In this document: positions 1,811-23,644 of the stretch, one piece after another
Layout of the letters: the number at the start of each line of letters is the position of its first letter
Numbering within the stretch: position 1 is the first letter of the stretch
Assembly: GCF_025526975.1 (NCBI RefSeq)
Contig: NW_026515704.1
Span: 1 to 64,000, forward strand
DNA: 64,000 bases
Direction of reading: 5' to 3'
DNA from: Fimicolochytrium jonesii
Taxonomy: Eukaryota
Made by a program: the position numbers and the translations under genes
Notes under the pieces: generated by a model
Seen by the model: the letters and a program-made list of their open reading frames with translations, nothing else
Told to the model about the DNA's origin: nothing
Database searches by the model: none

Positions 1811-1897
1811 TAACCCTAACCCTAACCCTAACCCTAACCCTAACCCTAACCCTTACCCTAACCCTAACCCTAACCCTAACCCTAACCCTAACCCTAA
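1811..1897 (+). repeat. Telomeric repeat tract (TAACCC)n, ~14 units
   Basis: Read directly; one TTACCC variant; abuts the fibre ORF. Confidence 0.97.
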
Positions 1898-4800
1898 GTA
1901 CCTGCCGAAACACCGAGCTGTAACGTCGTGAAACTTCCGGCAGAAAGGTTAGGAGCTCCTAAGTGCGACTGAACAATCGGTCCTGCCGAACTGATATTGC
2001 TGTAGATTGTACCCGCAACGGTCAAGTCCTTTCCTACGTTAACATTGCCTGCAAACCCGGCTCCACCTTTGACTTGAAATGCACCTGATGTCGAAGATGA
2101 GGAGTCTGCCGTGGATAGAATCTGCACACTTGGAACATTGCTATTGATCACGAAGTTTGCCGCTGACCCGGAATAGAGGAAAAAGTTTCCAGCATTGGGA
2201 GCACTTGTACCGGTTCCAGCATAACCAAAAGCGCCCACTACCGTTCCCGTGTTGTTCAAGAAGCCAATAGTGGAAAACCCCGATGCCGAAAGACTCTGGA
2301 TCTTGAGAACATCGGATGTTGTGGAGTTGGTTTGCAATGTCCCCAGAGATGTTATCCCTGGTTGACTTGCGTTCACACTGAAGGCGTTTCCAGTGCGTGT
2401 CAATCCTGTTCCAGCAGTATAAAGACCGTCTACGTAGGCTTTCGTTGCCGCATGCAAACTTAGGGTTGGTGTTGACACGGTGGCTGTTCCCCCAATGTTT
2501 AATACACCAGATATACTTGCATTCCCAGTGACATCAAGACCGCTTAGGCTGGAAGCACCAATTACATTCAAACTGGCGTTGACCGTCACGTCTTGTAGAT
2601 CGCTGCCCCCAGAGACAACAAGGTCAGACGCTTGGACTTGACCAAACTGACCGATGCCGTCTACGGTCAAGGCAGACGAGGTCAAGTCAGTGGAGGTTAG
2701 GTATAGACTGTTCAGCCATGCGTCTGGAACCAGAGATAGGGTCGTTCCTGATTTGCTGAGGTTGCTGCCAGCGGTTGTTGTCTGCGCATCAACATAAGCT
2801 TTGGTACTCACTTGCGAATCGAGGTTGGCGAGAGGCAACACTCCCGTCACGTCTGTTGTCAGAGTGATACTGTTCTTCAGCGCAGTAGAGCCTAGCCCGA
2901 GGGCGCTTCTAGAAGCGGCAGGACTGGTCGAGATGAAGTTTGTCCCATCTCCTACAAGGAAGTAGCTAGCAGTGGCAGTCGCGTTCGATATGGTGCTGAG
3001 CTTGCTATTCAGCGGTTGCGCTCCCGTCTGTGTGGTGTTGATCAATCCGTCAACGTATCCCTTTGATGCAGCGTGAGTAGGGTTACTAGGGGTGGCAGGA
3101 ACAGTCACCGCTCCACTAACTATTAGAGCCCTTGCAATAGTGACCGTCAGATCATTCCCATTGACGTTGAGAACCGGTGTAGACCCGCCTCCAGTGGTAT
3201 TCAAGAGCGAAAGGAACCCGGGACCCAGTGAATCACCGGTTACGGTCGAATATAACTGCCAGCAAGCCCCTCCGGTTGCCGTACTCGATAGATTCAGCGC
3301 CGGCTGCGACCCCTGCACAATGACACCCTGCGTCCGACTGTTACCAAGATCGGAAAGAGACCCGAGAGTCCCAACACTGGTGATGCCAGGCTGGGCGGCG
3401 TTGACACTGAATGCTGTGCCCGTCTTCGTCAAACCAGAGCCGGCGGTAACAACAAGCGAATCAACATAGGTCTTCCTGGCTATCAATGCGTCTATCCTTG
3501 GCTCCGGCAGGACACTTGTGCCGACGTCCAATGCTAGGTCCAGCGATGACTTGAGGGAAAAAGAGCCAAGTCCGAGCGCCGATCTAGCGTTCGTTGGGCT
3601 GGTCGAGGCATAATTAGTCCCGTCACCAACAAGGAAGTACGAAGCAGCCGCTGTACTTGCAGCGATTGTCGATAGCTTAGCATTCAGCGGTTGATAGGAG
3701 GTAGCAGCTGTGGCTGAGAGGAGATAGTTACTGAGCGTAGGTGAACTGATAGCTCCGGAAAAGGTAGCTGTTGTCCCTGTCAGGCCTCCAGAAAGGGTCA
3801 CTGTGCCGAGAGAAGTGATCTTGGTCGAGTCGAAAGTCACCGTGTCCGCTGCTCGTGTCAGCACAGGGGAAGGAGCGAAAGTGAGCTTCTTCTCGTAGAC
3901 GGAAAGGTCCGGTACGCCGCTCAGCTGGGCATAGGGAAGAATTCCTGTTTTGTCGAACTTGAGATCTATCTGAGGCTTGATTGCCGCAGTATGGTACTGT
4001 TTAAGGATGTCGAGATTGACGGCTTGTTGCGGGACTTCATTCAGTACCCCGCGGTACGAACAAACACTGGGAGTGTCAAATAATAACCTTGTAACATCAC
4101 AGGAGGTGTCGTCGGGTTTCGGCAGCGTCGAAATGATAACTTGCCAGCCGTCTTCTAGCACCGGGTTGTTGTTGGCGTCTATGATCGGATTCCCGCTAGC
4201 GTCTGTCTTATTCTTTTGTTCGCGTCCAAAAACAGATGCAAAGCCGCCTACAATGGTTGTTCCCCCAACAGCTCCCGCGAGAGCCCCAAGAGCGCCGAAG
4301 GCTGAGGTAGGCGCAACAGCCACACCACTGGCCAAAGGCCCTCCTATGAGCGACGCACCGCTGCTGAGAAGAAACCCGAGGGGGCCAGTCACACTGACAA
4401 CGGGAGAGGATCCAGAAGCGGTCAACGGGTCACTCTCTGCAAACGGATCAGACTCCTCTGTGTTCTCCTCCGGGTCAGAGTCCTGCTTCTTCTGCTTATA
4501 AGGCTGAACGCTGCTGATTACGTAACCGGTACTCTCAGAACCTGCCACTATAATTCCCGCCCCCCCAGAGATCACCAGCGGCTGCTTAGAGATATTGAAA
4601 TCCTTGTCAGCTCCGGTCACTATGATGGGAAGAGTGCCAGTTATTACTGTCGGCGCTTCGGGTTCGGGCTGGTACGTGCATGAGATCGTTGAGCCGCTTA
4701 TGCCAATGTTGTTTCCCGCTGTGTACGCTCCTGAGATCGTGTTCCCTGTGGGATGGACACCGTTGTTCGCTTGATAGTTTCCTTTCACTGAGTTCCCGGT

Positions 4801-6408
4801 AACGGTGACTGTGGAGTCTCCGGCCTGTAGGTCCAGTTGGAGATCATTCTCGACCCTCTTCACACCTTGGCTGGCGGTCAGCTTCTCTCCGAACGTGTTG
4901 TTCCCGTCAAAGGTTATGGCTCCGGAGACGGTAGGTGCAAGTTTGACCTGATTCTGGTTCTCTATCTTGAGACCGCCGTTTCCTGGCTGGAACGTGAGTC
5001 CGATACCGATCTTACCGTCAATCACTCGAACACCTTTGTTGTCCACCAATGGCGTAACGTTGACCCCCAACACCTGGTTCTCGACCGCCAAAGTAGCGTC
5101 CGTACGCAAACTCACCGTCCGCCTACATCCGCTCACTCCGCTGATATCAATAGGGGAGCCCGTATCGCTCTGATACAGCTGTTCCACATAGGCGCTTGTA
5201 GGAACTTCGTTGTTTGACGGGGAGAAGTTGCTGTTGACTATTACGTGCGGCGCTCTTAGTTCGTTCAGCGTCTCGTTATATGTGAAACCCGAGTCCGAGT
5301 TTAAGCCAGATATGGCGTTGTGGAAAGGTACCCACCCCCTTCCAGCTGAGCGGATCGCCAGGCGTCCATTTGTCTGCTGAAAATCCTCACTGGTTTTCAA
5401 GCGGATGACGCTCGCGTCCGCGTCAACATCATCATCCAGCAGCTCGCTGATGGTCGAATATCCGAGCTCCAAGTGATCATCCAGCGCCAGTGAGGAGGCT
5501 TTATCGCTGCTGACGGCTCCTCTGCCGAACACCACCTGGGAGATATTGGTACCCAATTCATTTTCGTCGGTTACTTCAAGACCCTTACCTAGGGAAATGC
5601 TCAAAGTTCCATCTTGGCGCGTCAAAGGCGCCTCAATGGCCTCTGGAACTACGCTCAAAGCCCCATCTAAAACATGGAGACTGCCATCCGTGTGCAAGGA
5701 CACGGTCTTGTCTGCTGTGGCAGATTCATGCAGAGGAGCTTCATAGTTTGTTGGGACGATGGCCAAAGCGCCCGTGGCGTCCACGGCGAAGTCATCCGTA
5801 TTCAATTTCAACCCTACGCCTGACCCGTCTCGCGTTAAGGGTTGCTTTAGCGGTTCCTTTGGGACGGACAAGTCTCCATTCGCCGTTACAACGAGCGTAG
5901 AATCGTGCCGCAATTCGATGCCATCCCTGTCTCGAATCAGAGGAGGCTGAAGTGTTTCTGGGGCAGGGAAGACTACGGAAAGCTCCCCATCATTGACCTT
6001 CAAGGTATCTTGGTCGTACGAGAGCGTCAGGCCCTCATCCGTGACCGTTAATGGATCCGTCCATTTCAGTGTAAGGCGGTTGTCCGTCTCATCTAGAGGC
6101 GCGATGACCTCAACTTTTGGCACGGGAGTTGTGCCGAGTTTACCAGTGACTCGGAGGGTCTCATCATGAACAAGGCTGACGGTTGCCAGCCCGGCTTCGG
6201 TCTTCGATTCCAGCGGCTCGGTGGCCCCTACGCGATTCACTTCCAACGGGCCATTCTCGTTGGACACGGCCCGAAACGCCGCTGAATCGAAGCCACTCAT
6301 AGACATTTTGTCGCCAGCAGCTTTGATCGAACTACTCACGGTGGGCGCTACCAGGTTGAGCCGATCCAGCGTCCTGATGCCGCTGCTTGTCCGAGAGTTG
6401 ATGTTCAT
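1894..6408 (-). CDS. Viral fibre/spike protein (1504 aa), probably C-terminally truncated by the telomere tract
   Basis: N-terminal repeats such as PLTRDGSGVGLKLN and APLTRQDGTLSISLGKGLEV resemble triple beta-spiral shafts. Later AGxGLTxTGxxFSV and HAATKAYVD motifs resemble phage/NCLDV fibres. The stop TAG is part of the first TTAGGG. Confidence 0.8.
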   Translation of the reverse strand: MNINSRTSSGIRTLDRLNLVAPTVSSSIKAAGDKMSMSGFDSAAFRAVSNENGPLEVNRVGATEPLESKTEAGLATVSLVHDETLRVTGKLGTTPVPKVEVIAPLDETDNRLTLKWTDPLTVTDEGLTLSYDQDTLKVNDGELSVVFPAPETLQPPLIRDRDGIELRHDSTLVVTANGDLSVPKEPLKQPLTRDGSGVGLKLNTDDFAVDATGALAIVPTNYEAPLHESATADKTVSLHTDGSLHVLDGALSVVPEAIEAPLTRQDGTLSISLGKGLEVTDENELGTNISQVVFGRGAVSSDKASSLALDDHLELGYSTISELLDDDVDADASVIRLKTSEDFQQTNGRLAIRSAGRGWVPFHNAISGLNSDSGFTYNETLNELRAPHVIVNSNFSPSNNEVPTSAYVEQLYQSDTGSPIDISGVSGCRRTVSLRTDATLAVENQVLGVNVTPLVDNKGVRVIDGKIGIGLTFQPGNGGLKIENQNQVKLAPTVSGAITFDGNNTFGEKLTASQGVKRVENDLQLDLQAGDSTVTVTGNSVKGNYQANNGVHPTGNTISGAYTAGNNIGISGSTISCTYQPEPEAPTVITGTLPIIVTGADKDFNISKQPLVISGGAGIIVAGSESTGYVISSVQPYKQKKQDSDPEENTEESDPFAESDPLTASGSSPVVSVTGPLGFLLSSGASLIGGPLASGVAVAPTSAFGALGALAGAVGGTTIVGGFASVFGREQKNKTDASGNPIIDANNNPVLEDGWQVIISTLPKPDDTSCDVTRLLFDTPSVCSYRGVLNEVPQQAVNLDILKQYHTAAIKPQIDLKFDKTGILPYAQLSGVPDLSVYEKKLTFAPSPVLTRAADTVTFDSTKITSLGTVTLSGGLTGTTATFSGAISSPTLSNYLLSATAATSYQPLNAKLSTIAASTAAASYFLVGDGTNYASTSPTNARSALGLGSFSLKSSLDLALDVGTSVLPEPRIDALIARKTYVDSLVVTAGSGLTKTGTAFSVNAAQPGITSVGTLGSLSDLGNSRTQGVIVQGSQPALNLSSTATGGACWQLYSTVTGDSLGPGFLSLLNTTGGGSTPVLNVNGNDLTVTIARALIVSGAVTVPATPSNPTHAASKGYVDGLINTTQTGAQPLNSKLSTISNATATASYFLVGDGTNFISTSPAASRSALGLGSTALKNSITLTTDVTGVLPLANLDSQVSTKAYVDAQTTTAGSNLSKSGTTLSLVPDAWLNSLYLTSTDLTSSALTVDGIGQFGQVQASDLVVSGGSDLQDVTVNASLNVIGASSLSGLDVTGNASISGVLNIGGTATVSTPTLSLHAATKAYVDGLYTAGTGLTRTGNAFSVNASQPGITSLGTLQTNSTTSDVLKIQSLSASGFSTIGFLNNTGTVVGAFGYAGTGTSAPNAGNFFLYSGSAANFVINSNVPSVQILSTADSSSSTSGAFQVKGGAGFAGNVNVGKDLTVAGTIYSNISSAGPIVQSHLGAPNLSAGSFTTLQLGVSAGT

Positions 6409-6475
6409 CTCGGAGGAAGCAGATGATTCCTAGATTGATAACAAGGGAGGGAAAAAAAAGCGATATGAGATCTGC

Positions 6476-6772
6476 TCAGGCCAGAGGAATGTTCTGCAGA
6501 TGCCCGAGGAATTGATCGCCTCCTTTGTGGTAAGCATCAACCTTCTTTAGCCCTAGATCAGCAAAGGAGCCTACCTTACGTGAAGCTTCCTTCACCTTGT
6601 CGTCGAAGATATCATTGGTTTCGACTCCCTGGTGGACATGAGTTAAGAGCTTGTGGCCAGTCCTGACACCCGAGACCGCTTGATCGAGGAATCCCCGAGC
6701 CTTCTGAATGTGACCTGGAACTTTCGAAAAGAAAGTGTTTGCTTTGCTTCGTGCTTTGTCAAAGAATCCCAT
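6476..6772 (-). CDS. Small basic amphipathic protein (98 aa), candidate virion membrane-lytic/internal protein
   Basis: MGFFDKARSKANTFFSKV: Gly2 followed by an amphipathic helix pattern; located between fibre and capsid genes. Confidence 0.55.
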   Translation of the reverse strand: MGFFDKARSKANTFFSKVPGHIQKARGFLDQAVSGVRTGHKLLTHVHQGVETNDIFDDKVKEASRKVGSFADLGLKKVDAYHKGGDQFLGHLQNIPLA

Positions 6773-6837: not shown

Positions 6838-8397
6838 ATGGTTGAATTCGACGACAGAAACGCTGGCCTGCCAACTGCTGCTGCTTTTACTTACCCAAAC
6901 CAGCCTATTCTCAACATCCATGCGAGACAGTACGGCTTCATCCGCGGTAAACCAGGGGCAACGTTCAACAGATTGTTCCATACAGGGTTTTACGTGCCAG
7001 GAAAGGGCGTGGTGAAAGATGTCTTCAACAGACCGCTCTCAGTTGCAGAGAAAGTCACCCTCCGAGCTGCTCCGTACCAAAGCAAGGTCGCTCGGGATGC
7101 GGTTGATGCTCTCCATGCCGTGGAGAAGGAACGGGCGAAGCAAGCTTATTTCGATGAGCTCGACGCCAATAATCTTTTCCCGCGTAGGGGCAGGACCATT
7201 GCCTTACCCAGATCGGTTGCATCCCAGACGAACTCAGACGGCTCAGCCACCATCTTCCACCAGCCGGCATGGGTGCGAACTCAGCAGAACCAATTTGTGG
7301 GGGATGTGACCAGCAACGTCCAGCGAGGCGGCGATTCGCATCTGCCAGAGAAGGGCAACAGCAATGCAGGAAAGCCCATCCTTGGAATCAATCCCGTTGT
7401 GACGAAACGCGATGATGGCGAGAGTCTGACCGACGAAATTGGGCGACTGGGAAAGGTGTCGGGAATCACTTTCGGAACTCAGACCAGTCCCGTCCTGTCT
7501 CCCCCCAAACATGCAGTTCGCGATATGCGTTCGGTGGCGTCGGAAACCAACATGCCTGACATTGGCAGAACCACATTGGACCTCATATTCGCAAACGGCG
7601 GCCGCTTCCAGACGTTCATGGACCAGCTGCGTTTCGGGAACGAGACGCTTCAGCAGCAGCTTCGGGGGCAGGAAGCCCAGCTGGGTAACATATCAGCTGC
7701 CACTATGTCCACATTCAAGAACATCCTCGTTTCCATGGGCTTCCAGGAAAGTAGCCTTCCTGCGACGATCAGTCCAGACGAGATGTTGCGTCTCGTGAAG
7801 CAGGTTGAGACAATTTCTCCGGTAGCAATCACCGAGATAGCAGCTATGCGAACCCTTATAGAGACTTTGAAGAAGCAGAGAACGCAGGAGGTTGCCGATA
7901 TGGGAACGCAGTACTCACCTCCTTCCACACCGGCAGCTGCCTCCAGTCGTCCCGTTCCTCCACCTATCCAGACCCAGTGGCAACCGAGGGGGTCACCGAC
8001 TCCATCCCTTCCATCCGTCGATTCTATCTTTGGTCAAAGCAGCCTGAATTCATCCCCAGAGCGGTATGGGCATAGCAGCGGGAGGTCTACACGACCTATG
8101 TCTATCTCTCCGGACGTAGCACCCCAGTTCTCTCCCGAACCCCAGCCTTCTGCTCCTGGTCCTAGCAGCTTGAAACGAACCGCAGATCCAACCCAGACGG
8201 AAATATTCGGCCCTGAATATACGGTGGAGGCCGACCAAGACACTCCGGTTGTCCCCTTACAAAAGGCAGCTAAAGGCAAAGGAAAGGCACCGGCCGTAAG
8301 ATCATCCAAGAGAGAAGCTGCAGCACCTGAGAAGTTGTCTGACGACGCTGGATTCAAACAGACCTCGACTCGGAAAGGGAAAGGGAAGGCTAAGTAA
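6838..8397 (+). CDS. Hypothetical viral protein (519 aa) with central coiled coil, P/S-rich region and basic C-terminus
   Basis: Long intact ATG ORF; ends STRKGKGKAK; no family recognised. Confidence 0.7.
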   Translation: MVEFDDRNAGLPTAAAFTYPNQPILNIHARQYGFIRGKPGATFNRLFHTGFYVPGKGVVKDVFNRPLSVAEKVTLRAAPYQSKVARDAVDALHAVEKERAKQAYFDELDANNLFPRRGRTIALPRSVASQTNSDGSATIFHQPAWVRTQQNQFVGDVTSNVQRGGDSHLPEKGNSNAGKPILGINPVVTKRDDGESLTDEIGRLGKVSGITFGTQTSPVLSPPKHAVRDMRSVASETNMPDIGRTTLDLIFANGGRFQTFMDQLRFGNETLQQQLRGQEAQLGNISAATMSTFKNILVSMGFQESSLPATISPDEMLRLVKQVETISPVAITEIAAMRTLIETLKKQRTQEVADMGTQYSPPSTPAAASSRPVPPPIQTQWQPRGSPTPSLPSVDSIFGQSSLNSSPERYGHSSGRSTRPMSISPDVAPQFSPEPQPSAPGPSSLKRTADPTQTEIFGPEYTVEADQDTPVVPLQKAAKGKGKAPAVRSSKREAAAPEKLSDDAGFKQTSTRKGKGKAK

Positions 8398-8488: not shown

Positions 8489-8763
8489 GAACGAAGTCTT
8501 GTGTTTATCGATGAGATTATCGATGAGTATTGTGTTTATCGATAAACTCGACGGCCAGTTTGGGCCAGCAAAAATGTGCCGTATGGTTATCGTCCCCTGC
8601 GCTTCGCCGCAGCCTGTCGCTCCAACACGAATCTTCTTAACTGGGGAGGAATGACCCCCTTCTTAGGTTTCCCTGATCCTGTTCGTGCTGTTGTAAGTGC
8701 TAGTTTCCTCGCCATACGTTTATGAGTCTCGCTTCTGTCTCTACAACTAGAAAAAAATTGCTA

Positions 8764-9987
8764 CTATACGACGTCCACCGTGGACCCAATGAGGAGCGTG
8801 CGGTGGTTGTAGACAGTAGTTAGCAACAACACGGCCGTGCTTGGCGCCGGTAACGCGTGCGTTGTGATTACGCGGAGGTTACCGTCTGATCCGACAACGT
8901 TCAACGAAGACTCTGTGTCCTCATCAGATGACTGCCAGCTGTATCGCATGACAAACCGTTCGGTGAAGAAGTTTGTCAGATCCACATCTTCCGAGTAGTA
9001 ACTGGCGTTATCACTCATGGACAGGGCACCGATCATGACACTGTCAGACACGTCGAAGTCGTCTGTGAGAGGGAGACGCCAACCGCCTAGCTGAAATCGC
9101 CACGACTTCAAGTTAGCTGTGGTGTAGATACGCAACTTGTCTCCCGTGGTCGTTGCATAGGTGTTATCGTCCCGGAAGCGGTGAGTGAGACCAGTGACAC
9201 GGCTATTCGTCAATGGCAGGATGAAGTTGTTCTGAGACGCCCCACTGCAGGTATTGGACAGCTGGTTGACAGACACGAAGTCCATCTCCAGGTACTTGCC
9301 CGCCTGGATTCCCTTCCAGAGCGTGGAAAGATACTCGCTGCTTGGGGTGACAAGCTGGGCCACGTAGCGGAGGTTGCTCACGGTGAAGTAGGAACCGGCA
9401 GGAGCATCTGTGAACGCGCTTTGGGGGGTGTTGAGAGGCAAGGACAGCTCACAAGCTTGGTTAGGCAAGACGCACAGAGGCAGCGGTTGACCGTTCAGGG
9501 GCCTCATGCTCCCAAACTGAAGATGATGTTTGAAAGTGAAACCCCCAGCATCGTTTTTGAAAGCGTTTGGAGCCGCTACCCCTTCGTGGTATGCAGGATA
9601 CTTTCGCCTTTCCTTGTCCACGAATTGGTACAGGTCGGTCAAGAACAAGGGAAAATCGGTAATCTCATCTACAAGCTTCCCGCCGATTCTAATGGAAGCT
9701 GATCTGAAGCACCCCATTGCGCCAATGTCGGACACAGTGGCCGTCTTCAGAGCTGTCCCATCGGCGTTGAAAAGGGAGACGGTCCCACTCAGGTATGACC
9801 TTTGGGGCCGCAGGAACGACGAGTTACTGTCAATCACTACTTTGACACTATTTGCGCTTGTCCTCGAATCAAAATTTTCCTTGATCGGACGATAGATGGC
9901 GATGTTTTCACTCAGGGCGTCGCTATGCATCGAGAATTGCCTACTAGCGTACTGCCAGTTAGCAGGTACCACGGGATTTGTGCTCAT
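8764..9987 (-). CDS. Major capsid protein, PLV-type double jelly-roll (407 aa)
   Basis: SFLRPQRSYLSGTV and GAMGCFRSASIRIGGKLVDEITDF match the FLxPxxSYL and GAxxxIxxxxIxxGxxxxExI pattern of PLV MCPs; beta-rich; size and context fit. Confidence 0.82.
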   Translation of the reverse strand: MSTNPVVPANWQYASRQFSMHSDALSENIAIYRPIKENFDSRTSANSVKVVIDSNSSFLRPQRSYLSGTVSLFNADGTALKTATVSDIGAMGCFRSASIRIGGKLVDEITDFPLFLTDLYQFVDKERRKYPAYHEGVAAPNAFKNDAGGFTFKHHLQFGSMRPLNGQPLPLCVLPNQACELSLPLNTPQSAFTDAPAGSYFTVSNLRYVAQLVTPSSEYLSTLWKGIQAGKYLEMDFVSVNQLSNTCSGASQNNFILPLTNSRVTGLTHRFRDDNTYATTTGDKLRIYTTANLKSWRFQLGGWRLPLTDDFDVSDSVMIGALSMSDNASYYSEDVDLTNFFTERFVMRYSWQSSDEDTESSLNVVGSDGNLRVITTHALPAPSTAVLLLTTVYNHRTLLIGSTVDVV

Positions 9988-10067: not shown

Positions 10068-10625
10068 CTAACTCCAACGCGATCCGAAGATGCCCATGAA
10101 TTCGTCTACGCGTGTTGACTGGGCGGAAGGGCCATCCACAACCGTCTCTTCATCTTTGGAACTGTAAGCGATATCATCAGGTAACTCTGGGCTTGCAGCC
10201 CGACGTGAAGGTTGTGGCTTCTTAGCTGCCGTCTGCTTAGGTTGGACCCCTGCCATCTGATGGCGCTCAGCCTTTCTGGCAGCCCGTTCCTCCTTTGCTT
10301 TCAGTTTCGCTTTCTCCTTCTCCCGTTCGTACTTTTCTATGATCTTCCGAGCTCGTTCCTTTTCTGCTTCCTTCTGCTCCAGCTCCCGCCGCTTAGCCTC
10401 CTCCGCTTCCTGCTCTTTTTTCATCTTAGTCAGCTTCCGCAGGTTCTCCGCGCGTTTCTGCTGAGCACGCTTCAGTGCCTCCAGCTGGGCTGGTGTTCTG
10501 GGCTTCTTCTGACGCTCTTTGATGGTTGCGTCAAGGACCTCATCGAGACCATCGTCTGCCGCAGGGACTGGAGTAGGAGGCCGATTTGCGTTCTCCTGTA
10601 CTGGCCTATCCTTATAATCCTCCAT
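10068..10625 (-). CDS. K/E-rich coiled-coil viral protein (185 aa)
   Basis: KKPRTPAQLEALKRAQQKRAENLRK followed by a charged helix; lies between penton and MCP. Confidence 0.7.
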   Translation of the reverse strand: MEDYKDRPVQENANRPPTPVPAADDGLDEVLDATIKERQKKPRTPAQLEALKRAQQKRAENLRKLTKMKKEQEAEEAKRRELEQKEAEKERARKIIEKYEREKEKAKLKAKEERAARKAERHQMAGVQPKQTAAKKPQPSRRAASPELPDDIAYSSKDEETVVDGPSAQSTRVDEFMGIFGSRWS

Positions 10626-10683: not shown

Positions 10684-11442
10684 CTACGCCACGCGATTCG
10701 GGAGCATGTCTGAGGGGTCATCGAAGATACCAATCGTGACTATCATAGGGCTATTGGTCTGAATCTCATGCAGCGTTGCGCTGTTGACTAGAGCGATGTC
10801 CACTTCGGTGAGAGTAGTGTCTTCAAGAGCATGGAAGCGGTCGCTTGGGTTCACCCATGTGATCACATCGTTGAAATTATCTGGAACAATGGCACAGAGA
10901 ATATTCATATCACTGTTGATCCCCGCTGGATAGAGGACAGCTCCGTTGGTTTGAAGCGTCCAGGATGTCAAGAGGATAGGTTGGGATGCAGAAAGGTTCA
11001 GCGTGTTTGGTAGCTCAAACGATGTGCCGTAGCCAGTCTCCGAAGCTTTGGAGATTCCAAGCTGTAAGTACGCGCTCGATCCGCGATTCCCTTCAAGAAT
11101 CTTGAACTGCTTTGTCCCAGTGGTTTTAACCCTTAACCGACGCGTGACTTCGTTGTATTCGCATTGATACGCTTGCGTACCCTTCGAAGTCAATGCGCTG
11201 GCCACAGCGTCCAGGATGCTGGCACTGCTGTAAGTTCCGGACGGAAGAGTCGCCTTGATGGGCGTCAAAGAGCCTTGCTCGACAAACATGATGGAACTGT
11301 TGGACACATCTGTGGCATCCATGTTTTGAAGGAAGCAGACACTTACGACTCGAAAACCATAGCAGGCTATAGGCGACATGCGAAAAGTGGCTTGATTCAG
11401 ATCAGCCAAGGTTCCCGTGTTCAGGATCAGCTCTCGGTACAT
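10684..11442 (-). CDS. Minor capsid protein / penton (252 aa)
   Basis: TLPSGTYSSASILDAVASAL matches the (I/L)PxGxY motif of PLV/virophage pentons; C-terminal LTEVDIALVN strand. Confidence 0.8.
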   Translation of the reverse strand: MYRELILNTGTLADLNQATFRMSPIACYGFRVVSVCFLQNMDATDVSNSSIMFVEQGSLTPIKATLPSGTYSSASILDAVASALTSKGTQAYQCEYNEVTRRLRVKTTGTKQFKILEGNRGSSAYLQLGISKASETGYGTSFELPNTLNLSASQPILLTSWTLQTNGAVLYPAGINSDMNILCAIVPDNFNDVITWVNPSDRFHALEDTTLTEVDIALVNSATLHEIQTNSPMIVTIGIFDDPSDMLPNRVA

Positions 11443-11511: not shown

Positions 11512-12282
11512 GACGCCCCGGAAGTTTCTAAGGCTAAGGTACCAAAGGAGTTCGAGATCCATCTCAAGGATGAGACACCTCAAAGCTACCCGAGAAAGTT
11601 CTTTGCTTTGACAATGGTAGGGAGTTCGCGGAGTGGCAAGACAACCTCAATAGTCAACTTCATAGACAAACTGGCGCCCGTGTACAGTATAGTTGTTGTC
11701 TTCACGCCATCCAGTTCAGATGTAACTTGGACTGCCTTACGTAAGCACGAAAATGTATTAGTAGCAGATCTTATCTCAAATCACGTGCTCCATACCCTGT
11801 TCGAGCGCCAGACGAAGCTGTATGCGGCGAATAAGGAAGAGAATCATATGCTGATCGTCATCGACGACTTTGGTATCCTCAGTCAAGAGAAAGGACCAGA
11901 TATCGGAAAACCACCTAAGCAGCCTGAGCTTGTATCGAGCGGGATAAAGCAGATGCTCGATCTTCTCTATAGTCGACCTCCGCATCGAGGCTGCAGTCTG
12001 ATCGTGTCCTATCATGACTCCCTGCAAATGTCCCCTCTAGTTCGGGTCAATAGCACCCATTGGGTTCTGTACCGCCTCAATCTAAAGCAATATGAGAAGA
12101 TTGCACCGGAAGTCGCGTGTCATGTCTCGCAGAAGGAGTTCATCTCGCTTGCAGACGCGTATACCAAACAGCCATTCAATTTCATGTACGTGGATTTGAA
12201 GGCACATGAGAACAAGGATGTATTCAAACATGGCAAGCCAGCGCCGATGAAAGAAATTACTTCAACAAAGGCAAAGAAGTGA
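11512..12282 (+). CDS. A32/FtsK-like DNA packaging ATPase (start uncertain)
   Basis: Walker A GSSRSGKT, Walker B MLIVIDD, SPLVRVN motif. The frame is open from 11512 but has no ATG before 11614. The usual RGRH motif reads RPPH. Confidence 0.85.
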   Translation, partial: DAPEVSKAKVPKEFEIHLKDETPQSYPRKFFALTMVGSSRSGKTTSIVNFIDKLAPVYSIVVVFTPSSSDVTWTALRKHENVLVADLISNHVLHTLFERQTKLYAANKEENHMLIVIDDFGILSQEKGPDIGKPPKQPELVSSGIKQMLDLLYSRPPHRGCSLIVSYHDSLQMSPLVRVNSTHWVLYRLNLKQYEKIAPEVACHVSQKEFISLADAYTKQPFNFMYVDLKAHENKDVFKHGKPAPMKEITSTKAKK

Positions 12283-14023: not shown

Positions 14024-14131
14024 TTTCGCATCGCGTTTATCGATAAACTCAGAGAGCAAACGCGTACATAAAAAGCCCTCGCATATACGGTGATGGAATG
14101 TATACATGTATGTAGCATTTATACATTCAAC

Positions 14132-14656: not shown

Positions 14657-14705
14657 ATCGTGCGCGGCCAAAAGGACCTCACAGTGGAAGCGTAGATGGT
14701 AGTAC

Positions 14706-14928
14706 CTTATGCGTCTTAGAACCGCATATTATACCACCATTCCCGCATATAGCACCTCTCCATCATTGCTCAACTGGTACTCGTCCGAATCTGACCGTCT
14801 TATACTTCTTAGAACCTTTTTTGAGAAAGTGTTGAGAATAAGGAAGGAAAAAGGATGGTAGCTTAGAGATGAAAGGGCGGTACTGTGGGACTTTGCTGGA
14901 AACGGTATAATCATTCTAAGTGATCTAA
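14706..14928 (+). repeat. Left arm of a ~222 bp imperfect inverted repeat
   Basis: Reverse complement of 17957-18178; identical blocks TCTTATACTTCTTAGAACCTTTTTTGAGAAAG and GCGGTACTGTGGGACTTTGCTG. Confidence 0.93.
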
Positions 14929-15285: not shown

Positions 15286-17956
15286 ATGAGCAACACATTC
15301 AAGAAACCCCGTCTTTCCGAGTTTGATGCGAAAGGCATCTCAAAAGGGCAGCTGCTGGAGGCAGCGGAAGAGTATCAGAGGCAAGGATTCATCCCTGTGC
15401 CTGCCAAGGTAAAAGGCTACAAGTGGAACCAAGAGCTAGGAAAGTTCAAAAAGCAAATGACCTTCGAGAAGGAGTTCACGAGCACCACGCTTGATGATTG
15501 CCTTGAAAGATTCAAAGCCTTGACGAAAGTAAACGCGATCGCGTTGCTCTGTGGGCCTAAGAGTGACACTTTCGCAGTCGATGTTGACGACATAGCGAAG
15601 TTCGATTCTTGGTTGGAAGCTGAAGGCAAACCTATCGAGACAGCCGTTCAGCATCGGGGGTTGGACGACACTACCTGTTTCGGTCAGACGAGCGCCTTCG
15701 CGGCTTGGAAGGTCAGCAGAACATTTCCTTCCCGGGAGATATCAAGCTGGATGTTGACCTCCGAGGCGGGGATAAGTACACCATCCTCGTCGAACCGACA
15801 AAGCTTTGGAGTCCGGACAAACAGCATGTCTTTGAGTATCGGTGGGCAGTACCCCGCACACAGCTGCGAGCTTCGCTAAAGCCTACTCCCGACTGGCTCT
15901 ACAAGGCGATTGAGAGCAATAAGAAGGCACACAAGAAAAGCCCTTCATTTTCATCCTCGTCCTCTTCCTCGGTTGCACCCTCCTCAAAGGCGTCCTCATC
16001 CGAAAAGTGGGAACCTGAAGGACTTACGCAAGCTTCTTGTGATACCATTGCAAAAGTGTGTTCAGAGACTTTTCCAGAGTTCGACCAGACGGATTTCTTC
16101 CGCATCCAGTGGTACCGTACCTGCATCTTGGCACGGGTCCGGAGTTCGCACTGCCTTTTGAAGGAAAGCGATCACAATGATAAGCCCGGTCACGGCTACC
16201 TGGTCGTTGCTCGAACAAAATCATCTACCGGTGCTTTAGCACAAAGTACGCCGAGTGTTCTGGTGGGGAGATAAAGCGACCCATCGAGAAACAGGAAAGC
16301 GGACTGGCTATGACAAAACTTTACACCGACCATTCTCCCATGGCCGCACAATGTAGCGCGATCGTTACTAGCACCTTACCGATCGAAGATCGAGCGGTGG
16401 CGGAACTGGTGCTTAGTCAACTGGAAGGCACAGTCGTACGCACCACCGGGTCCGAACCGCTGAAATGGCACGCGTATAATGATGTTGCAGGAATTTGGGA
16501 AGTGAAGGACGCCGGGGTCATAGCACGCCTGATCTTCGACTCCATCGCGGAGGAGTCGAGACAGCTGCAGACGTACTATGAAGCTGAAAGGAAGAAGCTC
16601 GTTTCTGCAGATGCGGAGGGGACCGATGAAGCGCAGGGGAAACAAAACAAAAAGGAGCTCGATCGTCTAATCGGCCGGGCAAAGGCCTTGTACTCACACG
16701 TCAGTGCGAACCGAACAATGAGCTCAACACTGCGCAAACTACAAGATGACATATGTGATGACCGAGTCAGGAAGCTTTGGGATACGAGAGATGACCTTCT
16801 TCACTTTTCCAACGGAGTGTATGATTTCAGCAAGACGGAGTTCCGGAAGAGCAGCCCACAGGACTATTCCACTCGTGCATTGACTCTCGAATATGTCCCG
16901 TACGCACAGCACCCTCCTCACAAGAAGGCAGCCGTCAAGAAGTTCTTCTCCGACATAACTTTGGATAATCAAGAGCTGGAGGATTTTTTGCTGAAGATTC
17001 TGGCTTCTATTCTTCACGGAGATGACCCGAACCAGTTAGGTTTTTTCTTTGCCGGGTCAGGATCGAATGGGAAATCCGCCCTGATTCGACTTCTCAATCA
17101 CGCTCTTGGGCCCTATTGTACTTCGCTTTCCACTGCTTTATTGGGTTCCGAGCCCAACAACGGAAACGCTGCTAGCCCTGCTCTGATGCAACTTAAGGGC
17201 ATGCGAGGGGCCTTCGCTACTGAGTACGAGCGGCCAACCATGGAAACCGGCTTCATCAAATCTTGGATCGGACGTGACCAGCATACCGCCCGCGAGAACT
17301 ATGGTAGTAACGAGAACTTCACCATCAAAGCCACTTTCCTTCTCGCGTTGAATAACATGCCTATCATTCGCGACAAGACTCATGGCTTCTGGCGGAAGCT
17401 GTGCAAGATACCCTTCAATGCTGAGTTTGTCTCTCATACTCCTAACATGCCGAACGAACGGGAATCTTCACCCGACTTTGAGAAGAAGCACCTGCTACCT
17501 GCAGCAGACACATTCTTGGCGTTACTAGTGGATGTATACTACCCGAGATATGAAAGCGAAGGGATGAAACGATCCGTCTGGCCGCAATGCGTCATAGACG
17601 CAACGGACGAGTATCGTCACACCCAAAACACCGCGGCGGAGTTCTTCGAAAACTATGTGAGACCCCCAACGAGTCAAGAACACTACATTACCTGCTCCGC
17701 CTTCGATGCGCTTTTCGTAAAGTTCTGTGAAAAGAAAGGCATCCCATCAGGCAAGCACATCGTAGGTCTGCGTGACTTGATGGACAAGAAGTACCTTCCT
17801 GGCAAAGACCCCAAAGATAAGAATTGCCACAACTTTCATGTCCCTCCTTCTTTCGGGGAGGCTAAGGGCAAGACCATCCGCGGCTGGAAATGTGTTGTAA
17901 GCCAGGAATGGAAGGTTGAAGACCCGAAGGATGCCGAAGAGCCCGGGGAGCGATGA
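15286..17956 (+). pseudogene. Prim-Pol primase + zinc finger + D5-like SF3 helicase; one gene with two frameshifts (~15650, ~16215)
   Basis: Primase: NAIALLCG..FAVDVD, then after a shift SGVGRHYLF and DVDLRGG..VEPT. Zn finger: HCLLKESDH..HGYL, then after a shift IYRCF..EC. D5_N: LLHFSNGVYDF. Walker A: GSGSNGKS; also GFWRKL. Confidence 0.88.
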
Positions 17957-18178
17957 TTAGACCATTTAGAACAATTATACCGTTTTCAGCAAAGTCCCAC
18001 AGTACCGCTCCTTCATCTTGTAGCTACATCCTTTTCCTTCTTTTATCCTCAAACCTTTCTCAAAAAAGGTTCTAAGAAGTATAAGATGTACAGTTCCGGA
18101 CGATTACCGGTTGGTTAACGACGGAGAGGTGCTATATGCGGAAATGGCGGTATAATATGCGGGTATAAGACGCATAAG
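17957..18178 (-). repeat. Right arm of the inverted repeat
   Basis: Starts on the base after the helicase stop codon; reverse complement of 14706-14928. Confidence 0.93.
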
Positions 18179-18188
18179 CTGAAACCAT

Positions 18189-18905
18189 CTACGCCTCCAC
18201 GGTGAGGGTCCGTTTCGCCCCACATGGTCTGCAGTACCTCTGCATTAGGAGAATCGTAGCTATGTCACATCCTTGGCAAGCGCGGAAACGCGGGACGATG
18301 CTCATCCTTTTACAAACGCAGTTGTAACAGGTTCCAGGCGATACATCCTTCGCCAGGCACTTTGCCCCAGACGGTAAAGTCACCTTTCGCTCGCCTTCGG
18401 CGAACCGGTACTTCCTCTGGCACCCTTTACAATCAGCGAGAGACCGATAGAAGGCGACCTGACCTTTGGCGACGACATCTTGCTCTTTGAACCATCTAAC
18501 GCAATCATTCCCCATTCTGATCAGACGTCTCGTCTTCTCGTTCCAGAGATAATACACAGATCGGATCAGATGCATGCATACACAGGCGTCCTCAGAATCA
18601 ATGTGCTCGATATGCTCCCCGTTGTCCTTTCTCAGCCCATTACATACTTCAGCAAAATCATAGACGCCTTGAACGCCAAACCTCTGGTAGAAGGTTCTGA
18701 TCGCCATGATCTCTAACCTCCCGTCAACCGTTGTCTCCACCTCTTCTGCTACCCCATCCGCGAGTTAGGTATGACCCACTACCTTCCATTCCCCCCGTGC
18801 CGAATGGAAGTTGTCCGCTAAGGATGCCAGTGGGACCTTCTTTTGCAAGATCTCTCGATGATGTTTTGCGACCTCCTTCATCATCATCTTTGTCCTAGAC
18901 ACCAT
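18189..18905 (-). pseudogene. Cys-rich zinc-binding viral protein with an in-frame TAA at 18765-18767
   Basis: Same frame from ATG 18905 (..SARGEWKV..) through CVCMHLI..WNEKT..MGNDCVRWF and several CxxC pairs; the pattern resembles proteins of large DNA viruses. Confidence 0.6.
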
Positions 18906-18913
18906 AAAATTAT

Positions 18914-19252
18914 TTACTGTTCTCCAAAGCATGCCACGAGGTGGCTATGTTTGCTGGACATGTCACTGGCAACGATCACCACGACTTTCCCTCCATGATA
19001 CGCGATTCCAAGATATCCACTTCTCCGAATCTCGAACATGGCCCTCCGTCTCTTTCCCAATCCTCCCTTGAAGCTACAAATGCTTCCGAGTGTCTCGAAA
19101 ATGTGTCTATTCTCCTCCGTCAAAGCTACGTAAAACATGAACTTCTCCTTCCCTCTGACGGCGCGGCAGAGCTCCCCGAGATCTTCCAAGGAAGCGCATT
19201 TCGAGTTGTACAGCGTATGACCCGCTACCACTCGAATCCGCGATCGCGACAT
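18914..19252 (-). CDS. Hypothetical viral protein (112 aa)
   Basis: ATG ORF tightly packed in a minus-strand run, with TATATA upstream. Confidence 0.5.
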   Translation of the reverse strand: MSRSRIRVVAGHTLYNSKCASLEDLGELCRAVRGKEKFMFYVALTEENRHIFETLGSICSFKGGLGKRRRAMFEIRRSGYLGIAYHGGKVVVIVASDMSSKHSHLVACFGEQ

Positions 19253-19295
19253 CGTTACTAGAGTATATACAAAGGGCGCGGTTTATATAGGGCTC

Positions 19296-19649
19296 CTATG
19301 TCTCTGACGCTTCCATGGAGATATCGGGGCTCGGCTGGTTTGTCGTAGCGTCCTCGGCGGGCGCAGGAACATAGGGAGGTAGATTCTCCCTGGGGCGAAC
19401 ATGGAGTATCGCATGCCTTCGCGCCAGGATTTGGCCTCGTAGCTCCTCGAACTTGAAAGCCATCTTATGCGCTTCGCGCAACATATCGTTCAGAAGTTCC
19501 ACGATTTCTTCTACGCTATTGCAGCACTCAACATTGCTCGCAGCGCCTCTGTAGGCGTCCAGGAGAGCGTGAAAAGCCGCATCGTGCTGCAACTTGATTT
19601 GGGGGTCAGACAGCTCGTCAAAAAAGGTTGTGAGTTCCTCCGCGTTCAT
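19296..19649 (-). CDS. Hypothetical helical viral protein (~117 aa)
   Basis: ORF from MNAEELTTFF; upstream start possible. Confidence 0.5.
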   Translation of the reverse strand: MNAEELTTFFDELSDPQIKLQHDAAFHALLDAYRGAASNVECCNSVEEIVELLNDMLREAHKMAFKFEELRGQILARRHAILHVRPRENLPPYVPAPAEDATTNQPSPDISMEASET

Positions 19650-20697
19650 CTTTCGTCGTTGTCTATTCTTGATCCGGGAATGGCGGGAGGGCTGGCCCTT
19701 TATCAAGGTCATCAGGTCTCATTTTTCGCCCTACGGCACCACTTTCATGAGCTTCCGTCATTCCTACTTTCCACCGCGCGTGTCGCATTTCTATTGGTCC
19801 ACTAGCGCTCCTACAGAGTTACTGCATGACCAGCGGTAACAGACTGCAATCAAGTCCCTGACCCGTGATCCTTATCGGGATCACATCCAGGTCATCCTTT
19901 CGTCATCAGCAGCTGGCTGTCCGATATGAGTCGGCTACGGCCATCAACATCTCTATAGGCACCATGAGATATCGTCGGCGTCCCCTCGTGTCTGTTGTAG
20001 TCTTAGACCCGTCGTACAAAACGGGCGCAATGATCAGCGTTGTGAGTAGTACCCTTTGCTCCCGGATCGTTATCGCCATGGCTGCATTCTTGCTAAGTCC
20101 TTGCTGCCGAATACGGCAAGACGATCATGCCTTCCAGTAGGAATGCAGGACGTATCTATCGTTTGAACGACGTCCCATATAGAAGCTATTTACGCTTCCC
20201 ATAGGGTTCTGTCAAGTCCTGAAAACGAAAGCGAGTTTGTCTCCTGAGACGATAGGTGAGTGTTGACTGCTGCGTTGCTGTAGCCCGGTCGAAGCGCGAG
20301 AGGTGCGGGATGTACGGATGTCTGGGTCGTCACTGTGCCAGACAAATACGTTTGGTGCTACGGAGTCGATGGCAGAGAGGTTTCTGTGCTTATATGTGTG
20401 TCGAGGATGGTCGAGTCGTTTAGATGTACGGGAGGGGAAGGAAAGGATGTGCGGGAGAGAAAAGGATGTACGGGAGGGAAAAGGATGCCAGACGCAGTAC
20501 TTATGTATTCAGTATATTTCAGATACGAAACTTGCAAGATACAACTCTCGTCTCGGTCCCTGCGATCAACTCAACTCAACTCACGAGTTTGCGATAAACA
20601 CAAAATCTTATCGATAAACTCGCGACTTCATTGACTCGGCCCCCGAAATCACGTGTGACAAGAACGCGAAAACGCCACGCGACACAGCTCACGCGAC

Positions 20698-22290
20698 ATG
20701 AGTGATTCCGACAGCGAGACGCGCCAGACAGAGCTGGTCATCAACTTGCAATCCTGCGACGTCCCTGGGATGATCCGCACGTACATCGACAGCCCGTACA
20801 ATACCAATCGCGTGAATGAGAGAACACGCCGTTTGGCAAATGTGAGCCAATACTGGTTCGCCGGCCTGCTAGTCGACCTATCCAGGCGGGAGCAGCTCAG
20901 AGCTGCCATCTTGGCCCGCAACCCGCGCCTCGGTAACAACACCCTCGGTCAATACCTTGGCTATGTTTCAACTTTCCTTGAAAACATACTTGAGCATCCC
21001 GACCTCGTCGCTCAGGTGGCTCTTGCCCTCCATGCCAAAACTGCGCAAACAAGGCTTGCCCTCAAAAGGGATGCGACAGCGCTGAGGATCTTTGCCAATA
21101 GGATCCAAGCGGGACTTCCCAACCCCCAAGCAGCGATGGCGGTTCCGTCTGTTCAAGGCATCGACGCAGAGACCACCGCGGACGCCGATGCGCAACAAAC
21201 GGCCGCAGTGAACCATCGCGAACGAAACGACTTCAGCGAGGATGAGTGGGAGATAGTCAAGGACATTAAGCTTGACAGACTCTTCCCACAAATCGTTTAA
21301 GGTGGAATAGAGCGAGTACGACGCTTTTCCGACGGATTGGCTGCCGACCGTCGATACCAGGTGGAGCTAGGCATCCACTTGATCCGCTACGGTTGCGAGC
21401 CCAATTGTCGCTCCGCTCATATCAAGGAGAAGCACGACATTGCTTCTGCTGGAAACGAGGACTCATTGGCCTTGTTTTCGCAGCTTGGGGAGGTTCACTC
21501 CTACCATGCAAGGGCCAAGCATCAAGAGCGCGTGATAACCCAGCTCGGCAACATCTCTGCCCACTACCAGACCGACTTCTACAAGATGTTCCGCAAAGAT
21601 CTGCCTCTGGGTGAAACCGAGGGGTGCCTCTTCACGAACAAGGATGACCGACCTTGGGACGCAAACGAGTTCCGCGACGTCATGAACCGTCTTCTGCAGG
21701 AGCTGACGGGTCACAACGTCACCCTCAATCTCCTTCGGATCCTTGAGATCACCTTGAACCGCCCGCCCGACATGACCAACGAGGTAGAGCGCCGGTTCGC
21801 GCACGTTCGTGGCCATACCGTCGAGGAAAATCGTTGGTACGACCGTTGGAGCGGCAAGCTTCGTCTAGAGCAGTATCAAGCTGAACAGGCTGCGCTGCAA
21901 GCTCGACCCTTAGAGGACCCCACTCCACCTCCCGCGGCGCAGCGACTTCGGGTTACTGGTCCGAACTTTCCCGACCTGGCGGTTACCGTCAACCAGATTG
22001 TGCAGCGTCTTATGCCTGGATTAGTCACCAATATCGTCGCCCAGCTGCAAGACCGGCCTGAGCACGAGGACGGCGCTCACTCTGCAGGTGACGATCAAAG
22101 GACCGGATCGGTTGTAGCGGACGATCCAGTATTTACTTATGGCATGGAACCAGAAGTGATTGCGGCCAGCGACGGACCGTTTGCCGAGACGGTTCAAGTT
22201 GCGCTGATCAAAGATGCGGTGGTCAACAAGGCTGAAGATGCGTCGGCTGACAAAGAAGAAGGCCTTGAACTTGTCCCTGTTGACCCTTGA
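20698..22290 (+). pseudogene. Tyrosine recombinase-like gene with one in-frame TAA at 21298-21300
   Basis: ORFs 20698-21300 and 21337-22290 share a frame. YGCEPNCR (catalytic R), CLFTNKD, TLNLLRI and FAHVRGHTVEENRWY give an R..xxxR..GH..Y arrangement. Confidence 0.7.
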
Positions 22291-22394
22291 GAGAGGTGAC
22301 GAATGGCAGCTTGGATGTACAGCGGGTCGTGAGATTCTTGTAGGCTAGCGTGTTTGTGTGTCCAAATAGGATCTGTATGTATATGGAATAGTGT

Positions 22395-22950
22395 CAATTC
22401 ATCGCATCGCATCGCGTCGCCCGTAAGGACGCGTTGAGGTGAATAGAATCCATCCGTTCGTTCAGACATGAGATGGAGACTTCATCGCATTGCGTTGCAT
22501 GTCCGTGATGCGATGGAGAGAGATGGACTTGTCACGTGACGCGCGAATAGAATCCATCGCGTCGTTCAGACATGAGATGAAACATGGCCTTCATTGCATT
22601 GCGTTGCATGTCCGTGATGAGATGAAGACATGAGATGGATGGATGGAGCTGTCACGTGACGCGCGAATAGAATCCATCGCGTCGTTCAGACATGAGATGA
22701 AACATGGCCTTCATTGCATTGCGTTGCATGTCCGTGATGAGATGAAGACATGAGATGGATGGATGGAGCTGTCACGTGACGGGTGAATAGAATCCATCGC
22801 GTCGTTCAGACATGAGATGAAACATGGACTTCATCGCATTGCGTCGCATGTCCGTGATGCGATGGAGGCAGAGTTGGAGGCAGGGATGGAGTTGTCACGT
22901 GACGCGCGAATAGAATCCATCGCGTCGTTCAGACATGAGATGAAACATGG
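22395..22950. repeat. ~120 bp tandem repeat, ~4.5 copies, four of them with the palindrome GTCACGTGAC
   Basis: GTCACGTGAC at 22531, 22651, 22771 and 22894, each followed by GxGxGAATAGAATCCATCGCGTCGTTCAGACATGAGATG. Confidence 0.95.
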
Positions 22951-23072
22951 CCGATGCGACTAGCGACGGCAGGATGGAAGGATGGGAGGGTGTGTTTGAA
23001 GACAGTGAAGAGAAGAGGAAGGAGACAGAAGGAGGCGGACGTAGTCGCCAAGTAGAGTCTCTAGCGACGAGT

Positions 23073-23407
23073 ATGGCAGCAATGGTAGCGGGGCAGCGGG
23101 TTTGGTCAAGCTGGCCCCAACGCATTTTATGGCTTCATCGCCGAGGGCGTTCTCATCGATAAACTCACCGGGGTAACCAGTATGTAACTGATACAGGGAC
23201 TTGGGAGGAACGGACATGTAGCGAAGGAATAACGGGAAAGTGGCAGCAATGGTAGCGGGCGGCGGGTTAGTCAAGCTGGCCCCATCGCATTTTCCATGGC
23301 TTGATCGGCGAGGCCGTTGTTATCGATAAACTCGCCGATTAAGCAGTATATAACTGCTACAAAGACCTAGGAGTAACGGGCATGTAGCGAAGGAATAACG
23401 GGAAAGT
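23073..23407. repeat. ~168 bp tandem repeat, 2 diverged copies
   Basis: TGGCAGCAATGGTAGCGGG...ATCGATAAACTC...CATGTAGCGAAGGAATAACGGGAAAG occurs twice. Confidence 0.92.
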
Positions 23408-23533
23408 AGCACCTATGAATCAGCGGCGTAACTGGGACGTAATGCATACATACTATGTACTGTAATGGTTATGACCAGTATACAGACCAGTTATGCACCG
23501 AATACACCACAGTTACATAACCAGAAAATAGCA

Positions 23534-23579
23534 GTGTCGTAGTGCAGGTGTAATTTAAATTACACCTGCACTACGACAC
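23534..23579. repeat. Perfect 46 bp palindrome
   Basis: GTGTCGTAGTGCAGGTGTAATTT|AAATTACACCTGCACTACGACAC. Confidence 0.97.
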
Positions 23580-23644
23580 ACGCCACCTGGGTGAGAGCCA
23601 GGTGTCGTAACCACTAAGCCAAAATGTGTGTGTTCCCGTTACAG

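Follow-up and report, generated by a model that had tools for sequence, protein, structure and literature searches.

We report that the window analysed here, a 64,000-nt stretch of contig NW_026515704.1 from the soil chytrid Fimicolochytrium jonesii, very probably carries a decayed, integrated Polinton-like DNA virus (PLV). Its own retroviral-type integrase likely placed it there, and a later break within the fibre gene was likely sealed with telomere repeats of the host. The viral block spans positions 1894-23579, is 80% coding and has a GC content of about 0.51, compared with 0.55-0.60 in the adjoining nest of long terminal repeat (LTR) retrotransposons. A sequence-only reading had proposed a viral cluster of ~22 kb in this fungal genome, and the cluster is indeed present, with a major capsid protein (MCP), packaging ATPase, integrase, primase-helicase, fibre, tyrosine recombinase (YR) and penton candidate all in place and a right edge at 23579. 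The gene set, the lesions, a terminal palindrome and the telomere junction are established, as are relatives in other chytrids and, on a predicted model, the double jelly-roll fold of the MCP. The element is real and represents a fossil copy of an apparently still mobile family of chytrid PLVs.

Three features of PLVs, in the umbrella sense of the term, were found: a double jelly-roll MCP, an A32-like packaging ATPase and an integration gene (rve, with a likely YR in addition). PLV genomes measure 14-40 kb and are bounded by terminal repeats with a target-site duplication; of this element at least 21.7 kb survives. Its right end consists of repeats and a palindrome, its left end is lost, and no inverted left-end partner of the right terminus was found in the window. 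Scans of the open reading frames (ORFs) of the surviving 21.7 kb with Pfam, PHROG and other profiles, which leave the lost left part outside their scope, gave zero matches to protein-primed DNA polymerase B (pPolB), in agreement with the earlier claim that no PolB is visible and that a primase-helicase, matched by phrog_1156 and TIGR01613, stands in its place. The same scans returned neither an adenain-like cysteine protease or other maturation protease, several ORFs being without a family, nor giant-virus core genes (PolB, VLTF3, YqaJ, RNR); the flanks hold LTR elements and fungal genes. Judged by its genes, the element is a PLV by the features tested and falls outside the Polintons/Mavericks in the strict sense, with a primase-helicase present and pPolB not found.

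Structure prediction and structure searches were applied to the MCP gene (8764-9987, minus strand; 407 aa, frame intact). Folded with 16 homologs, the AlphaFold2 model reached a pLDDT of 79 and a pTM of 0.80, and it matched the capsid protein of Paramecium bursaria chlorella virus 1 (PBCV-1) with a Foldseek E value of 1.6e-19 and a VIA Z score of 28.0 (rmsd 3.0 over 344 residues). Further VIA matches followed from faustovirus, African swine fever virus, Sputnik, PRD1 and mavirus, and every one of the top 13 VIA rows is a viral capsid or capsid-scaffold protein. Virophage capsids rank below those of nucleocytoplasmic large DNA viruses (NCLDVs), with Z scores of 20.3 for Sputnik and 18.1 for mavirus versus 20-28 for NCLDVs. 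The NCLDV capsid family of Pfam gave no match to the MCP. Only 5 of 82 conserved columns are departed from, no more than in its homologs. The model thus identifies the product as a double jelly-roll capsid protein, the fold for which a structure prediction of this ORF had been proposed as a check.

The candidate penton, or minor capsid protein (mCP), is a 252-aa ORF at 10684-11442 (minus strand), singled out by size, position and likeness by eye. It resembles, again by eye, the row labelled "possible mCP" in Table S2 of PMC7805220, and searches of Pfam, PHROG, NCBIfam and PDB sequences returned no match. Between it and the MCP gene lies a charged, helical ORF of 185 aa (10068-10625, minus strand) that occupies the same position in Geranomyces, where the order penton/185-aa ORF/MCP is also kept. 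We treat the 252-aa ORF as a penton candidate only.

The A32-like packaging ATPase (11512-12282, plus strand) is a damaged copy that reaches 26.3 bits against Pox_A32 (cutoff 22.8) when the search extends to the 34 codons preceding its first ATG. PF04665 is present in 11 of its 13 homologs, and an ATPase profile gave only weak PilT matches against PDB sequences. Beside it, the 417-aa integrase (12294-13547, plus strand) combines an rve (DDE) core with a C-terminal chromodomain (profile matches: rve 9.8e-15, Chromo 2.4e-11), and both its frame and its D-D35-E catalytic triad (D96-D156-E191) are intact. The profile matches and the triad spacing bear out the rve-chromodomain integrase named from the sequence alone. 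This protein is only 22% identical to the neighbouring Gypsy integrases, indicating that it does not belong to the retrotransposon nest.

The primase-polymerase/D5 (SF3) helicase gene (15286-17956, plus strand) is spread over three frames by two frameshifts. Across these successive frames phrog_1156 matches collinearly (profile positions 10-86, 111-251 and 389-786), the two N-terminal pieces being weak (E 7.5e-4 and 0.024), and TIGR01613 scores above its cutoff. Repeat comparison revealed a 265-bp inverted repeat (84%; left arm 14666-14928, right arm 17957-18219) that exactly brackets this cassette. The repeat may be the trace of a replication module that was inverted or exchanged, or may serve as a recombinase target.

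A divergent tyrosine recombinase is the likely product of 20698-22290 (plus strand), a gene with one in-frame stop and the residues R238, K274, R347, H373 and Y381. The catalytic pattern of tyrosine recombinases is R-K-(H)xxR-H/W-Y. An exhaustive phmmer search gave eight matches, of which five (284-418 aa) span the whole domain and were aligned; the three left out are the window's own gene model and two spurious matches (a PAS protein and a 4529-aa PKD protein). In the resulting six rows, R238, K274, R347 and Y381 are invariant, while H373 is kept in four and replaced by Q in two. The first His position of the motif is N in the window copy, R in four of the five homologs and A in the fifth. 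Of the nine Atlas structure matches listed, seven are named as YRs or bear PF00589, though none of them reaches the naming bar. No match was obtained in Pfam, PHROG, NCBIfam or PDB, nor with the YR profile against PDB, and tblastn against phages gave four chance matches only. The invariant residues, together with the independent Atlas fold matches, lead us to take the gene as a likely YR. Accordingly, of the two unrelated recombinases claimed earlier, the rve integrase stands by profile and the YR stands as likely, on conserved residues and weak fold matches. By analogy with proposals for virophages, the YR may resolve junctions or insert the virus into a second target, for example a giant virus.

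The left edge of the block is a telomere junction inside the fibre gene (1894-6408, minus strand; 1504 aa). The fibre carries adenovirus-type shaft repeats near its N-terminus (Av_adeno_fibre domain, 39.4 bits; cutoff 22.7); its Atlas structural neighbours are phage fibre proteins at lead-level scores, and a PDB sequence search gave no match. Its frame enters (TTAGGG)14.5, the array starting within the last codons and the first repeat supplying the stop codon, so the fibre is likely truncated and the left end of the virus has been lost. The array has the orientation of a chromosome end. It belongs to two units of ~330 bp, 82% identical, at 1211-1897 (plus strand), each of which ends in (CCCTAA)n, with 9 copies at 1486-1539 and 14.5 copies at 1811-1897; AATAATAAA lies shortly before each of the two arrays. 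Beyond them, non-viral sequence (1-1210, plus strand) has a CpG observed/expected ratio of 0.65, against about 0.95 elsewhere, and short ORFs at 2-274 (open at its 5' end) and 120-443 (a weak zinc ribbon). This segment is possibly the 3' end of a telomere-attached element, and window 1-1897 as a whole may be a telomere-attached retroelement or a subtelomeric repeat. A Penelope/Coprina origin of the left flank was considered and is unsupported, no hammerhead or other Rfam family being found in 1-24500. On the simplest interpretation, the provirus was broken internally and then mended, either through addition of telomere repeats or through capture of the end of a different chromosome, and the new end grew afterwards. 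Such a junction within a viral gene makes visible a route by which a host chromosome end can disable a provirus.

At the right boundary, subterminal repeats at 22438-23417 comprise 3.6 copies of a 120-bp unit and two of a ~170-bp unit, and likely make up most of the right terminal repeat. They lead to a perfect 46-bp palindrome at 23534-23579 whose inner 44 bp read TG...CA. A terminal CA is the dinucleotide needed by retroviral-type integrases. The arm of this palindrome is 23 bp, whereas the other five of the six perfect palindromes in the window with an arm of at least 7 all have an arm of 7, and its folding z score is -6.7. Directly after it, a second, imperfect hairpin (23580-23610) reuses its GTGTCGT end, and an LTR-like element starts 65 bp beyond the palindrome.

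The copy is broken at several points. The primase-helicase has two frameshifts and the recombinase one in-frame stop, and under a motif filter there are 0 GT-AG intron candidates that could account for these interruptions; the NCBI gene model nevertheless splices out the YR stop. The ATPase lacks the N-terminal Met found in all 13 homologs, has no in-frame start before its Walker A strand, where a 9-bp tandem duplication lies, and carries Pro where 12 of 13 homologs have the Arg of an R-G/A-R-H motif. The MCP and integrase frames are intact. On these lesions the present copy appears dead and unable to complete a viral cycle alone. The extracellular stage suggested earlier is therefore not possible for this copy by itself, given damage to ATPase, primase-helicase, recombinase and fibre. 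The block recognised by the sequence-only reading is real, while the broken genes, the telomere junction as left edge and the 46-bp palindrome as right edge had escaped it.

Related genes recur in other chytrids. A word-seeded search found 16 MCP homologs, and all 12 of those with names come from Gaertneriomyces, Geranomyces, Phlyctochytrium arcticum and Powellomyces. We take these four to be Spizellomycetales. Among the 13 ATPase homologs, all six with an organism name are likewise chytrid. ATPase genes lie on seven contigs of Gaertneriomyces semiglobifer, five of which also carry the MCP, with neighbouring locus tags on at least three; the MCP occurs on six P. arcticum contigs of 0.4-1.7 Mb and the ATPase on three contigs of Powellomyces hirtus. 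Trees built from the homologs found, with no PLV references, leave the clade unplaced but reveal more than one lineage in each genome and, in some genomes, near-identical copies, indicating that the family moved recently. Scans of viral contig and metagenome contig collections found no related loci. Within F. jonesii, an NCBI gene model corresponds to the window in spliced pieces. The gene set, this gene-model match, the chytrid homologs and the host flank together uphold the earlier view of an integrated PLV-type double-stranded DNA (dsDNA) virus of a fungus. Fungal gene predictors merge or splice viral ORFs into false models (P0006, P0035, P0018), and the window's MCP, penton candidate, ATPase and integrase have no exact protein entries in the collection searched; as a result, the family is hidden in databases.

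Two sequence signals are shared across the block. The motif ATCGATAAAC has 10 matches with at most one mismatch, all inside the virus, against a chance mean of 2.4, and none of 100 shuffles reached that number; the motif was chosen after inspection, and four of its matches form two palindromic pairs. Its sites (8503-8547, 14035-14048, 16283, 20610, 23155 and 23322) include positions upstream of the YR, in the intergenic region on the MCP side, upstream of a 187-aa ORF and in the terminal repeats. In addition, 9 of 15 viral ORFs, among them all seven of the structural block, have a T-rich tract 37-61 nt before the start codon, a count reached in 0 of 3000 shuffles under a threshold set after data inspection. 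The tracts (6459, 6798/6827, 8757, 10047, 10661, 11490, 13729 and 15245) are mostly followed by a CT(A/T)AG-like word, and four of them are T7-8 runs that also fall within 45 nt after a stop codon. This distribution indicates a shared signal, with promoter, terminator and splice acceptor all fitting.

Several smaller features complete the block. Directly after the MCP gene, an unannotated basic ORF of 42 aa (8587-8715, minus strand; 31% K+R) has the same upstream T tract as the other structural genes and is a candidate genome-condensing core peptide; a PDB sequence search with it gave no match, and a likeness to the histone H3 tail, seen by eye, found no database support. The structural block also contains a 98-aa ORF (6476-6772, minus strand) with no assigned function. 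A 519-aa ORF (6838-8397, plus strand) has no family match. Three small ORFs of 172 aa (Cys-rich), 112 aa and 138 aa at 18189-19712 (minus strand) likewise match no family.

To the right, the host flank is a Ty3/Gypsy LTR retrotransposon nest (23645-49883) followed by fungal genes, namely a fatty-acid hydroxylase at 55.0-55.9 kb and a REJ/PKD protein from 59.4 kb. At 24377-48846 the nest comprises two Ty3/Gypsy chromovirus families, each with two copies 96-98% identical; the insertion at 24650-30737 has a 5-bp target-site duplication, and the copies of the second family are mutually inverted. The large host gene at 59426-64000 (plus strand) encodes Ser/Thr-rich tandem repeats and, after them, REJ and PKD domains, as in a polycystin-like surface protein.

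Some observations weigh against an integrated, telomere-capped PLV. The penton candidate lacks a library match and is identified by inference; the recombinase lacks a family match, and its single-sequence model has a pLDDT of 35, and the Atlas TM-scores of 0.37-0.46 refer to a poor model. Past the first telomere array come a second array and no less than 1.2 kb of further sequence, which simple telomerase healing does not fully explain. The left end, where a target-site duplication and a left terminal repeat would be expected, is gone, the hairpin at 23580-23610 means that the right end is placed only to within about 30 bp, and errors in the assembly could underlie the frameshifts. A free virus or contaminant wrongly joined to host DNA in the assembly would account for the low GC of the block relative to the LTR nest; we consider this highly improbable, as multiple inactivating lesions are not what a replicating virus would show, a viral gene is fused internally to host telomere repeats and homologs sit on Mb-scale contigs of other chytrids. 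Equally little credence can be given to a fragment of an endogenous giant virus (Mycodnaviridae) in place of a PLV. NCLDV capsids are the best structural matches of the MCP, and Polinton-like integrases are reported from Mycodnaviridae contigs; however, no PLV capsid is among the PDB matches listed, so that the NCLDV-first ranking says little, and the MCP matches no NCLDV capsid family in Pfam and has no giant-virus protein among its 16 homologs. The 21.7 kb, moreover, contain no PolB, VLTF3 or other core gene, and the block is compact, ends in a palindrome and is met again in the form of multi-copy elements.

Alternatively, the YR might not be a gene of this virus: a Crypton-like or different YR element of its own, or what is left of another virus, could have inserted into the right end or beside it. 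Unlike the MCP and ATPase, it has no close relative among chytrid gene models (its own model plus distant matches of 24-39% identity), and the roughly 1 kb before it holds no clear ORF; RVE and YR are described together in cryptophyte PLVs only through nested retrotransposons (PMC12220804). We judge such a passenger unlikely, because ATCGATAAAC occurs upstream of the YR and elsewhere in the virus, with all matches viral, no repeats bracket the gene, and the subterminal repeats and palindrome come directly after it. Compatible with the integrated PLV, and adding a lifestyle to it, is a virophage-like parasite of Mycodnaviridae that would use rve for the host genome and YR for the giant-virus genome while helper machinery transcribes its structural genes. 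RVE, YR and a long primase-helicase without pPolB form the layout of mid-GC endogenous mavirus-like elements (EMALEs; PMC8547959), the T tracts before 9 of 15 ORFs (7 of 7 structural) fit a shared late signal, and a giant-virus MCP gene has been reported in G. semiglobifer and, as a lone gene, in F. jonesii, making helper dependence plausible. Against this, no protease was found, the MCP is no closer to virophage MCPs (Z 18-20) than to those of NCLDVs (Z 20-28), T tracts followed by AG may be host splice acceptors or promoter pyrimidine tracts under a post hoc threshold, and the element has its own long fibre, a trait tied to independent entry (PMC12220804). On balance we hold this lifestyle to be possible, though not probable.

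For the integrated PLV as we understand it, the following life cycle can be proposed. Fibres on the penton vertices would bind the host cell. The genome would be linear, with palindromic ends able to fold into hairpins; these hairpins, the primase-helicase and a host (or helper-virus) polymerase may stand in for protein priming, giving hairpin- or primase-primed replication. The rve integrase would join the terminal CA to host DNA, with the chromodomain steering it to repeat-rich chromatin, and the YR might resolve replication junctions or offer a second integration route. Finally, the A32 ATPase would package DNA into capsids. A bolder version, which we put forward as distinctly speculative and doubtful, is that chytrid PLVs have hairpin-ended genomes whose palindrome is cut and resealed by their own YR as a telomere resolvase, with rve handling integration, a T-tract late signal read by a fungal giant virus, and many recent copies in culturable soil chytrids. 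A telomere-resolvase (protelomerase) match was found neither in Pfam nor in PDB for the YR or its homologs, and the Atlas rows listed are Xer/integrase-type or unnamed. If YR resolution and giant-virus-read T tracts were true, the element would be a virophage-like parasite and possibly an antiviral defence of the fungus.

To our knowledge, few dsDNA viruses of fungi have been described, and we know of no PLV of this type known as particles. The family is multi-copy in culturable soil chytrids, with at least seven loci in G. semiglobifer, six in P. arcticum and three in P. hirtus. Together with the reported giant-virus capsid genes, these culturable hosts make testable both the helper dependence of fungal PLVs and the role of terminal palindromes and a second recombinase.

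The host itself is less of a novelty than first supposed, since chytrid PLVs are already in print (Bellas 2021; Starrett 2021; a 2026 preprint). PLVs are reported from Spizellomyces punctatus and Allomyces (PMC7805220), and the preprint places chytrid A32 genes in two clades. Nor is the giant fibre unusual, as had been suggested: long fibres with avian-adenovirus domains, exceeding 1000 aa, are described as common among PLVs (PMC12220804). Among the papers listed by our literature search, which also drew on 10.1101/2025.04.19.649669, 10.1101/2023.10.16.562556 and PMC8557442, none describes this element or assigns PLVs a protelomerase function; bioRxiv supplements, outside that search, may list the element.

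The Powellomyces MELD viruses offer one comparison. Six viruses from this genus are reported to combine adenovirus-like fibres with PolB or non-PolB replicases (Starrett et al. 2021, PMC8502044), and they resemble the F. jonesii element in having a chytrid host of the same group, an adenovirus-like fibre and, in several members, non-PolB replicases. P. hirtus itself carries MCP and ATPase homologs of the element. These viruses were, however, assembled as genomes, whereas the F. jonesii element is a broken provirus. Likened by description, the two may belong to the same clade. Also integrated in a soil chytrid, the S. punctatus PLV group (Bellas and Sommaruga 2021, PMC7805220) shares an MCP and an ATPase with the F. 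jonesii element and has an mCP, the counterpart of which would be the penton candidate. As differences, no chitinase was seen in the F. jonesii element, and a lake-virus MCP 51% identical to SPPG_00925 has 554 aa versus 407 aa here. No S. punctatus protein was among the 16 MCP matches of the word-seeded search or the 13 ATPase matches. The F. jonesii element probably belongs to a different clade from this group.

Outside the fungi, the endogenous virophages and PLVs of Halocafeteria seosinensis (10.64898/2026.07.28.741278) resemble it in having terminal palindromes about as long (52 nt in one subtype), non-pPolB replication and RVE. There, in the virophages and one PLV subtype, terminal palindromes are described as going with non-pPolB replication and RVE, and a hairpin-priming model is advanced. 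Their host is a stramenopile, and RVE plus YR is stated for some virophages "but not PLVs", in contrast to the F. jonesii element, which lacks the virophage gene set. The mid-GC EMALE virophages of Cafeteria burkhardae (PMC8547959) are alike in combining rve, YR and a long primase-helicase with no pPolB, and differ in their mavirus-type MCP and maturation protease, neither of which was found in the F. jonesii element; mavirus-type virophages depend on CroV (PMC8547959). RVE together with YR is thus known from virophages, and in the available parts of two surveys (10.64898/2026.07.28.741278; PMC12220804) the pair was not found as PLVs' own genes. The presence of two recombinases of its own in one PLV therefore seems uncommon, and is the least ordinary feature of the F. 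jonesii element.

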